From sequence record PP925826.1: 64,000 nt of DNA. One strand, 5' to 3'. Shown here one piece after another: positions 48,807-48,865 of the stretch. The translations under genes and the position numbers were made by a program. The notes beneath the pieces were generated by a model. That model was not told where the DNA came from. It searched no databases and was given only the letters and a program-made list of their open reading frames with translations. The DNA comes from Escherichia phage Antha. The first letter of the stretch is position 1, and every line of letters starts with the position of its first letter.

Positions 48807-48865
48807 TTGACTTTCTTTAAAAACAGTTTATAGTATAAGACATAGAGCGGAGGATTGTCCTCCGC
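48807..48865 (+). promoter_or_regulatory. promoter + leader hairpin cassette (rightward)
   Basis: TTGACT-N16-TATAGT-ataagacatag + gcggaggattgtcctccgc; same layout as leftward cassettes. Confidence 0.55.

Follow-up and report, generated by a model that had tools for sequence, protein, structure and literature searches.

Here, we propose that the terC gene (48884-49861, + strand) of Escherichia phage Antha is headed by a composite leader, in which a sigma70-type promoter is followed at a set distance by a start-site motif and a GC-rich hairpin, and that this leader belongs to the same class as a series of cassettes standing before small genes elsewhere in the genome. The DNA analysed is a 64,000-nucleotide (nt) stretch of sequence record PP925826.1, hereafter the window. 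The pairing of promoter and hairpin at terC is not due to chance, and membership of the class is supported by its sequence motif, its register and its predicted structure. As to function, we regard as probable a model in which the transcript would open with a 5'-terminal stem-loop that acts as an mRNA stabiliser or insulator, not as a terminator. The source phage is a phi92-like myovirus (Justusliebigvirus, Stephanstirmvirinae) with a GC content of 37%, and around terC it matches Escherichia phage Nernie at 99.9% identity and phi92 at 98%. Genes lie on the - strand from 2.8 to 31.8 kb of the window and on the + strand from about 31.8 kb to its end. The terC product is a TerC-family integral membrane protein of 325 amino acids, homologous to Phi92_gp182 (Pfam PF03741, E=1.2e-38).

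All parts of the leader (promoter, motif, hairpin and Shine-Dalgarno sequence) are held in the 77-nt intergenic gap before terC, on the + strand. The -35 hexamer TTGACT (48807-48812; 5/6 to TTGACA) stands one base past the stop codon of the upstream gene, a gp183 homologue (TAG, 48804-48806, + strand), and a 16-nt spacer separates it from the -10 hexamer TATAGT (48829-48834; 5/6 to TATAAT). With 10/12 matches to TTGACA / TATAAT, this promoter agrees with what is expected of sigma70-dependent initiation, and it is also intergenic, points at the downstream gene and is conserved in relatives. The segment after the -10 reads ataagACATAGa; within it, the motif ACATAGAGCGG (48840-48850) spans the predicted transcription start and the stem foot, ACATAG starting 6 nt and the stem 12 nt past the -10. 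The hairpin has a perfect 8-bp GC-rich stem, formed by GCGGAGGA (48847-48854) and TCCTCCGC (48858-48865) around the loop TTG (48855-48857), and is followed by ATTAAAGA, which contains no U-tract. A single-stranded A-rich linker (48866-48872) then connects it to the Shine-Dalgarno sequence AGGAG (48873-48877), which lies 6 nt before the ATG at 48884 and is annotated as a ribosome-binding site in phi92. The 65-nt leader has a folding energy of -17.9 kcal/mol (z = -2.8), the hairpin alone contributing about -15 kcal/mol. The transcription start is predicted at the A of 48840 or of 48842, because start sites usually lie 6-8 nt past the -10 and a purine is available there in a CA context. A previous sequence-only reading had described TTGACT-N16-TATAGT, ataagacatag and a GC hairpin in front of the TerC gene, and each of these elements is indeed in place.

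The same reading saw in this layout a mirror of leftward cassettes. A regular-expression survey of the window yields about 14 such cassettes on the - strand between 16.5 and 25.6 kb, each before a small unannotated open reading frame (ORF), with the pattern TTGACA-N16/17-TAnnnT-(4 nt)-CA(C/T)(A/G)TAG(G/A)-GCGG...hairpin...CCGC, followed by 12-20 nt, a Shine-Dalgarno sequence and ATG. The tail after the hairpin in these copies is AAATCAAAG, which also has no U-tract. At terC, ACATAGAGCGG is in register with CACATAGGGCGG, its counterpart in the leftward cassettes, and the 12-nt distance from the -10 to the stem matches 5/9 leftward copies. Promoter-like hexamer pairs alone are unremarkable in this DNA (38 sites in 10 kb against 31.4 expected). 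The composite is another matter. We defined it by a -35 with no fewer than 5/6 matches to TTGACA, a spacer of N16-18, a -10 of the form TAnnnT and, beginning 8-15 nt past the -10, a perfect, GC-rich stem of 6 bp or more: the window holds 10 sites of this description (nine leftward cassettes and terC), against a mean of 0.04 in 100 dinucleotide shuffles. Likewise, CATAGRGCGG occurs seven times, in six leftward cassettes and at terC, where 0.06 occurrences are expected.

The most direct comparison comes from a covariance model, R1, built from five leftward cassettes only, from the -10 through the hairpin, on a homogeneous alignment with a hand-written structure and with terC left out. R1 finds the terC leader (48829-48869, + strand) at 27.4 bits and E=1.8e-5, the sole significant match outside 16.5-25.6 kb, and scores it above five genuine leftward cassettes; with filters off, it recovers nine more leftward cassettes. 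In phage Nernie (99.9% identity), R1 has no match over the remaining 83 kb, where the composite descriptor finds two unrelated sites only. Against reading this likeness as extended homology, a sequence-only nhmmer profile of 13 leftward cassettes does not reach significance at the terC site (E=0.97). The resemblance between terC and the leftward copies is thus one of architecture and register, with a 10-11-mer and a hairpin in common, and does not extend to long sequence homology; it is in this sense that the mirroring stands. Two other ways of defining the family were abandoned. When the cassettes were aligned with MAFFT, differing hairpin types had their 3' arms out of register, and RNAalifold on one such alignment gave only 4 pairs. 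The hairpin pattern GCGGGRAANNNTTYCCCGC is not specific enough to delimit a family, since in a scan of IMG/VR it gave 116 sites that are mostly single-copy; among the matches listed, the multi-copy ones were solely phi92-like contigs.

Conservation among relatives gives a second line of evidence. terC is present in 176 phage records, and we compared its upstream region in five lineages with TerC amino acid identities of 68-100%, namely the window, L004, tuntematon/ukendt, Tr1/L006/L016 and KP2025/L007 (L numbers are our own locus labels). All Stephanstirmvirinae terC leaders examined retain TTGAC(A/T)-N16/17-TA(A/T)nAT, a 7-9-bp GC-rich hairpin starting 7-12 nt past the -10, and AAAGAGGAG followed by ATG. 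The stem itself reads GCGGAGGA in Justusliebigvirus, GCGGGGA in L004, GCGGGGAA in tuntematon, ukendt and L015, AAGGGAGAG in Citrobacter Tr1, L006 and L016, and AGAGGGAG in Klebsiella KP2025 and L007. In a 19-column alignment of the terC hairpins, double changes are found at 5/7 pairs, and 100% of cells are paired, a figure that is partly circular because the rows were picked as hairpins and that to this extent weighs against our interpretation. Stability is uniform at -14 to -16 kcal/mol across differing hairpin sequences, with -12 to -16 kcal/mol as the span in the terC lineages compared, and in 12/18 hairpins the sense RNA is more stable than the antisense by virtue of G.U pairs. For all terC lineages, as for each of the 15 cassettes of the window, the stem starts 7-13 nt past the -10. 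Within Justusliebigvirus, the 62-nt terC leader is at least 96.8% identical in 54 records, and in five sequences the hexamers, stem and Shine-Dalgarno sequence are invariant, the two variable sites lying between the -10 and the stem. R1 matches Phapecoctavirus terC leaders at 32-37 bits. The arrangement is absent upstream of terC in the more distant Proteus 3H10_20 and L008, and in Vibrio MS02 terC has a hairpin and no evident promoter. A TerC alignment run against metagenomes gave little of use for covariation: apart from two phage loci, nearly all matches were remote bacterial TerC genes (35-48% identity).

In light of this conservation, what might the hairpin do? In the model that we favour, the terC promoter would be read by unmodified E. 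coli RNA polymerase, with transcription starting at the A of CAT in ACATAG (about 48840-48842). The resulting mRNA would carry 1-6 unpaired bases, the 8-bp GC hairpin, the A-rich linker, the Shine-Dalgarno sequence and terC. The stem-loop would make the 5' end inaccessible to RppH and to RNase E acting in its 5'-end-dependent mode, giving the mRNA a longer life, and it would keep the ribosome-binding site in a constant, unstructured context regardless of the sequence upstream. Work on ompA by Emory, Bouvet and Belasco in 1992 is reported to have shown that E. coli mRNAs gain stability from a 5'-terminal stem-loop of any sequence, provided that the unpaired bases at the 5' end number about 2-4 at most, and later studies from the Belasco laboratory reportedly found that such stem-loops shield E. 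coli mRNAs from both 5'-end-dependent RNase E attack and RppH. RppH requires at least 2-3 unpaired 5' nucleotides. Because its position past the -10 is fixed at 7-13 nt, the hairpin is expected to come first in the transcript that the cassette itself initiates; with stems 7-12 nt and predicted starts 6-8 nt past the -10, the terC lineages would have 0-6 unpaired 5' bases, and in the Tr1 type the stem begins at the predicted +1, leaving no unpaired 5' bases. The pattern of double changes with uniform stability amounts to conservation of structure over sequence, as would be expected of a 5'-terminal stabilising stem-loop.

Several observations weigh against this model. A start at 48840 would leave six unpaired bases, at the edge of 5'-end protection. 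The terC hairpin itself has no marked asymmetry between sense and antisense (-15.0 versus -14.6 kcal/mol). Within the genome, the stem foot GCGG..CCGC and the CACATAG motif are conserved in sequence, which a purely structural role need not require; recent duplication may explain it, or a factor that recognises these sequences. The spacer, at 16 nt, is one short of the optimum of 17. No terminator is found between the upstream same-strand genes and terC, so that terC may also be transcribed by read-through, the hairpin then being internal. Finally, it is from sequence that we infer the activity of the terC promoter, its start site, the stabilising role of the hairpin and the early timing of terC.

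Other functions for the hairpin, and the absence of any, have to be set against the stabilising stem-loop. That an ordinary promoter-like string merely adjoins an unrelated palindrome might be argued from how common such strings are in this AT-rich DNA and from the insignificant score of the sequence-only profile, but the excess of composite sites over shuffles, the R1 match and the compensatory changes across genera refute it, and we give it practically no credence. A terminator is a more serious proposal, although an unlikely one. Here the hairpin would work as an attenuator of the type described for the promoter-early stem-loop (PeSL) cassettes of T4-type phages, ending read-through from the gp189-gp183 homologues so that terC would be expressed only from its own promoter. 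Its place in the intergenic gap right behind the stop of an upstream same-strand gene would suit this function, RB49/phi1 PeSL polyG/polyC hairpins lower lacZ expression as strongly as rrnB T1 (PMC2839356), and automatic tools label the terC hairpin a terminator, if on the opposite strand, as in the record of phage Paula. An RNA 5'-terminal stem-loop is nevertheless favoured, for several reasons. Every copy and lineage has the hairpin in a fixed place past the -10, whereas PeSL stem-loops are variable and mostly lie between or upstream of the hexamers, and a terminator downstream of the promoter's own predicted start would abort that promoter's output. On the + strand, the terC hairpin lacks the U-tract and the unit-end position of an intrinsic terminator, while the phage uses canonical hairpin-plus-U-tract terminators at 45711-45732 and 49868-49889. 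The minus-strand tail TCTATGTCTT does pass a loose terminator scan, but no minus-strand gene precedes the hairpin that could be terminated there. Lastly, pairing and stability are conserved where sequence is not, and the G.U pairs favour the sense RNA.

The sequence conservation of GCGG..CCGC and CACATAG within the genome keeps two further rivals alive, both of which we judge improbable. In one, the inverted repeat and CACATAG, at +1 to +25, would be a DNA operator bound by a phage or host regulator that switches the promoter class off later. This is a typical position for a repressor operator, the outer stem GCGG..CCGC and CA(C/T)(A/G)TAG recur across the genome's cassettes, and a helix-turn-helix protein (gp189 homologue) is encoded 3 kb upstream; yet the half-site spacing varies (6+4+6, 7+3+7, 8+3+8, 9+3+9), the terC hairpins of other genera share no sequence while keeping position and stability, the Tr1-type hairpin occurs as a single copy in its own contig, and the G.U pairs render several stems asymmetric in favour of the sense RNA. 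In the other, the hairpin would be a recognition site in the RNA, bound or cleaved by a dedicated protein, for instance an endoribonuclease of the phage, a repressor of translation or an antitermination factor acting in cis, instead of passively shielding the 5' end. The freely variable loops and upper stems speak against it, as do stems too short for RNase III and the small use that short monocistronic units would have for antitermination. No candidate factor was identified, and a tblastn search for an Srd-like (RNase E-activating) protein with the C-terminal part of the Proteus phage Srd annotation gave no match. It would, on the other hand, account for the conserved motif and stem foot, for the GGAG-containing purine-rich 5' arms of all terC hairpins, and for the recurrence of the hairpin family in unrelated jumbo coliphages, at times without a sigma70 promoter; one example is GCGGGGAgtggtTCCCCGC, found both in WPEC5 and in the L004 terC leader.

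The jumbo phages deserve attention in their own right, since the presence of cassettes in 121Q/WPEC5-type phages means that the class is not confined to one phage family. The leftward cassette m22949 (TATAAT..GCGGGAAtagTTCCCGCC) has an intergenic counterpart in jumbo phage 121Q, with 93.5% identity over 44 nt, and the ORF downstream of it (window 22621-22935) is about 78% identical to WPEC5-type jumbo phage genes. Several CTTGCA-N17-TATAAT + GC-hairpin cassettes lie in the loci of 121Q (L101, 591-675) and WPEC5 (L102, 678-767, 2038-2124 and 2720-2812), R1 detects the jumbo-phage cassettes at E = 2e-7 to 1e-4, and the WPEC5 copy of GCGGGGAgtggtTCCCCGC, a 19-mer, is identical to the L004 terC hairpin. 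Hairpins of the same family without a sigma70-type promoter were also observed (L101, 913-970; L102, 381-437 and 1532-1806). These sit a few bases past a 10-bp palindrome, TCAGTACTGA, which is possibly a different promoter or operator. A bolder proposal, which we put forward tentatively and with more doubt than confidence, is that the terC leader is one copy of a promoter, start-site motif and 5' hairpin cassette exchanged horizontally among Stephanstirmvirinae and 121Q/WPEC5-type jumbo phages. In this proposal, a specific host or phage factor would read the GCGGG..CCCGC foot and the start motif, marking an immediate-early, moron-like regulon for protection from the mRNA decay that accompanies host shut-off. 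If so, the hairpin would not be merely passive, and the cassette would be an equivalent of PeSLs with the stem-loop in a fixed position.

The sequence-only reading further placed a whole Ter module under the promoter class of the small genes. Its first half, that the terC promoter is of this class, is borne out by the descriptor, the 10-mer and R1. The module is not, for an intrinsic terminator, aaGCCCCttcgGGGGCtt-tgtt (AAGCCCC-TTCG-GGGGCTT + TGTT; 49868-49889, + strand), lies 7 nt past the terC stop, and telA (51640-52743; PF05816) is 1.8 kb downstream of terC, separated from it by that terminator, three further genes and one or more additional consensus promoters (one at 49979). With these in between, the terC promoter would serve terC alone. 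All relatives examined have a terminator at the same position with a different stem sequence, GCCTCC-TTCG-GGAGGC and a T-rich tail. As a canonical terminator directly follows the gene, the terC unit is, as far as its sequence features tell, monocistronic and self-contained (promoter, 5' hairpin, ribosome-binding site, gene and terminator), and in this respect moron-like.

Among the neighbouring features, a near-consensus promoter (TTGACA-N17-TACAAT, 11/12; 49979-50007) falls inside the annotated small ORF gp181 (49901-50107), which may not be a real gene. This promoter is just upstream of a gp180 homologue (50079-50684), a Ser/Gly/Thr-rich protein with a signal peptide. Upstream of telA (51575-51640), an extended -10, TGtTATGAT, overlaps the hairpin ATGGTG-N12-CACCAT, which may be a second, different promoter-hairpin leader. 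On the other side of terC, a bidirectional terminator with T-rich tails, AAAGGAGGCgaaaGCCTCCTTT (45711-45732), ends the preceding operon, and no obvious promoter is seen between it and the gp189-gp183 homologues. In Nernie, at 49605-49690 of PP925835 (L095, outside the window), TTGACT-N17-TAGTAT, a hairpin (AGGAGAGCtatGCTCTCCT) and a Shine-Dalgarno sequence precede a hypothetical gene after thymidylate synthase; this leader has the architecture of the terC leader without the CATAG motif.

One terC locus has a mosaic history. When tuntematon (L009) is compared with ukendt (L011) and with window 48484-50261, its flanks are ~100% ukendt-like, as are both ends of the terC ORF (~75 nt at the start and ~60 nt at the end), and the ORF interior is ~90% Justusliebigvirus-like and 50-80% ukendt-like, which indicates a gene conversion between genera. 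The breakpoints lie inside the ends of the ORF and not in the cassette, and this comparison gives no sign of recombination at the terC cassette itself. Separately, several records titled 'Campylobacter phage' (e.g. MG065639, MG065656) match phi92-like coliphages at 98-100% identity and are probably mislabelled or contaminant assemblies.

The leftward cassettes, all on the - strand, vary in detail. From the right, m25586 (25527-25586) reads TTGACA-N16-TAAAGT-ttatCACATAGG-GCGGCAatagTGCCGC and is followed by m25230 (25167-25230). In m24778 (24722-24778), the order is reversed, the hairpin (AAAGCGGGAActaTTCCCGCTT) coming directly after the -10 and ACATAGG behind it, and m23737 (23681-23737) has an imperfect hairpin. 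Tandem promoters are seen at 23623-23737 (- strand), as a TTGACA-N16-TATAAT without hairpin follows m23737 after 76 nt, at 23661. Then come m22949 (22888-22949; GCGGGAAtagTTCCCGC), the cassette also found in 121Q, m22618 (22556-22618; GGCGGGAAAtggTTTCCCGCC), m22300 (22241-22300) and m21737 (21676-21737), the last without the CATAG motif. m19431 (19366-19431) has CATAGAGCGG, as at terC; m19063 (19000-19063) and m18492 (18433-18492) follow. The set is completed by m18217 (18154-18217), with a longer, imperfect hairpin, m17417 (17356-17417), and m16559 (16514-16559), where the motif is present and the hairpin degenerate. The ORFan cluster that houses them (16000-26000) is hyperplastic: records that are 95-97% identical in DNA cover 60 to 100% of the 10 kb, in 2-4 pieces, and just 19/287 matching phage records cover at least 80% of it. 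In phage Paula, ten hairpins of this cluster carry a terminator annotation.

When would terC be expressed? Strong sigma70-type promoters occur at 1.7/kb on the coding strand of the ORFan cluster; in the other non-structural arms they occur at 0.3-0.4/kb on the coding strand against 0-0.06/kb on the non-coding strand, and in the structural module they are at a background of 0.14-0.17/kb with no strand bias. This distribution fits a scheme in which host-polymerase promoters would drive early or middle genes and another signal the late genes, as has been proposed for rV5 (PMC3606486) and jumbo phage CBB (PMC5259590). The promoter passages of both papers list sigma70-like promoters and mention no hairpin cassette. 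Early expression of terC, which the sequence-only reading had taken to follow from its promoter class, is plausible, and would probably begin at the onset of infection, because the host polymerase could read the promoter without phage factors, and it is made likelier by the concentration and coding-strand bias of such promoters in non-structural regions. For the small leftward genes, too, early expression is something we infer, and a literature search found no transcriptome or start-site study of phi92-like phages, Stephanstirmvirinae or Vequintavirinae.

These findings provide a concrete annotation for a recurrent element of phi92-like phages that public records either ignore or call a minus-strand terminator, and define terC as an autonomous promoter-hairpin-gene-terminator unit conserved across Stephanstirmvirinae. 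The arrangement is conserved but represents ordinary regulation, a host-type promoter with a 5' hairpin leader, and calls for no change to current concepts. Should the 5' hairpin stabilise, this would explain how early transcripts last, and would offer compact, portable expression cassettes for phage engineering. Should terC be made immediately after infection, a role at the membrane in host take-over or superinfection exclusion would be indicated rather than one in virion production.

How does the terC leader compare with systems already described? As a structured 5' leader before a TerC-family gene, it recalls the yybP-ykoY (Mn2+) riboswitch leaders of the alx and mntP class. However, at about 42 nt, it is one simple hairpin with no expression platform, and this riboswitch (RF00080), like every other known RNA family, was rejected on finding no Rfam match at E<=10 in 48300-50200. 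With lambdoid morons, terC shares its own promoter, its own intrinsic terminator and its character as a non-essential accessory-type gene. It differs from them in having the same orientation as its neighbours and in being conserved across a whole subfamily, not sporadic. Like ompA-type 5' stabilising stem-loops, the leader would have a stable hairpin a few nt from the predicted 5' end and then a single-stranded ribosome-binding site, and since such stem-loops act by structure rather than sequence, the compensatory stem changes at terC would fit this function. Here, however, the 5' end is a predicted one, and the element is fused to a promoter as a repeated module.

Among known kinds, the nearest is the PeSL cassette of the T4-type phages RB49/phi1, PST and nt-1 (Arbiol et al. 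2010, PMC2839356; Comeau et al. 2014, PMC4122927). Both are repeated intergenic composites of a near-consensus sigma70 promoter and a GC-rich stem-loop, ending in the Shine-Dalgarno sequence and ATG of the next gene, and one PeSL subclass has its stem-loop downstream of the -10 (PMC2839356). As with PeSLs, the copies (about 14 at 16.5-25.6 kb) are concentrated in an ORFan-rich hyperplastic region, and at least one cassette with its ORF (m22949) is common to an unrelated phage lineage, the jumbo phages. The differences are equally clear. Our cassettes belong to Stephanstirmvirinae, not to Tevenvirinae-like phages; their stem-loop is always 7-13 nt past the -10 and would lie inside its own transcript, whereas that of PeSLs has no constant place and mostly falls between the hexamers or overlaps them; and they carry a conserved CA(C/T)(A/G)TAG motif at the predicted start, with no polyG/polyC stems, no U-tract and no sign in the sequence of terminator function. 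The single recombination seen at terC, in tuntematon, breaks inside the ORF and not at the cassette, and the terC copy stands before a conserved gene outside the ORFan cluster. The terC cassette extends the PeSL idea to another phage family.

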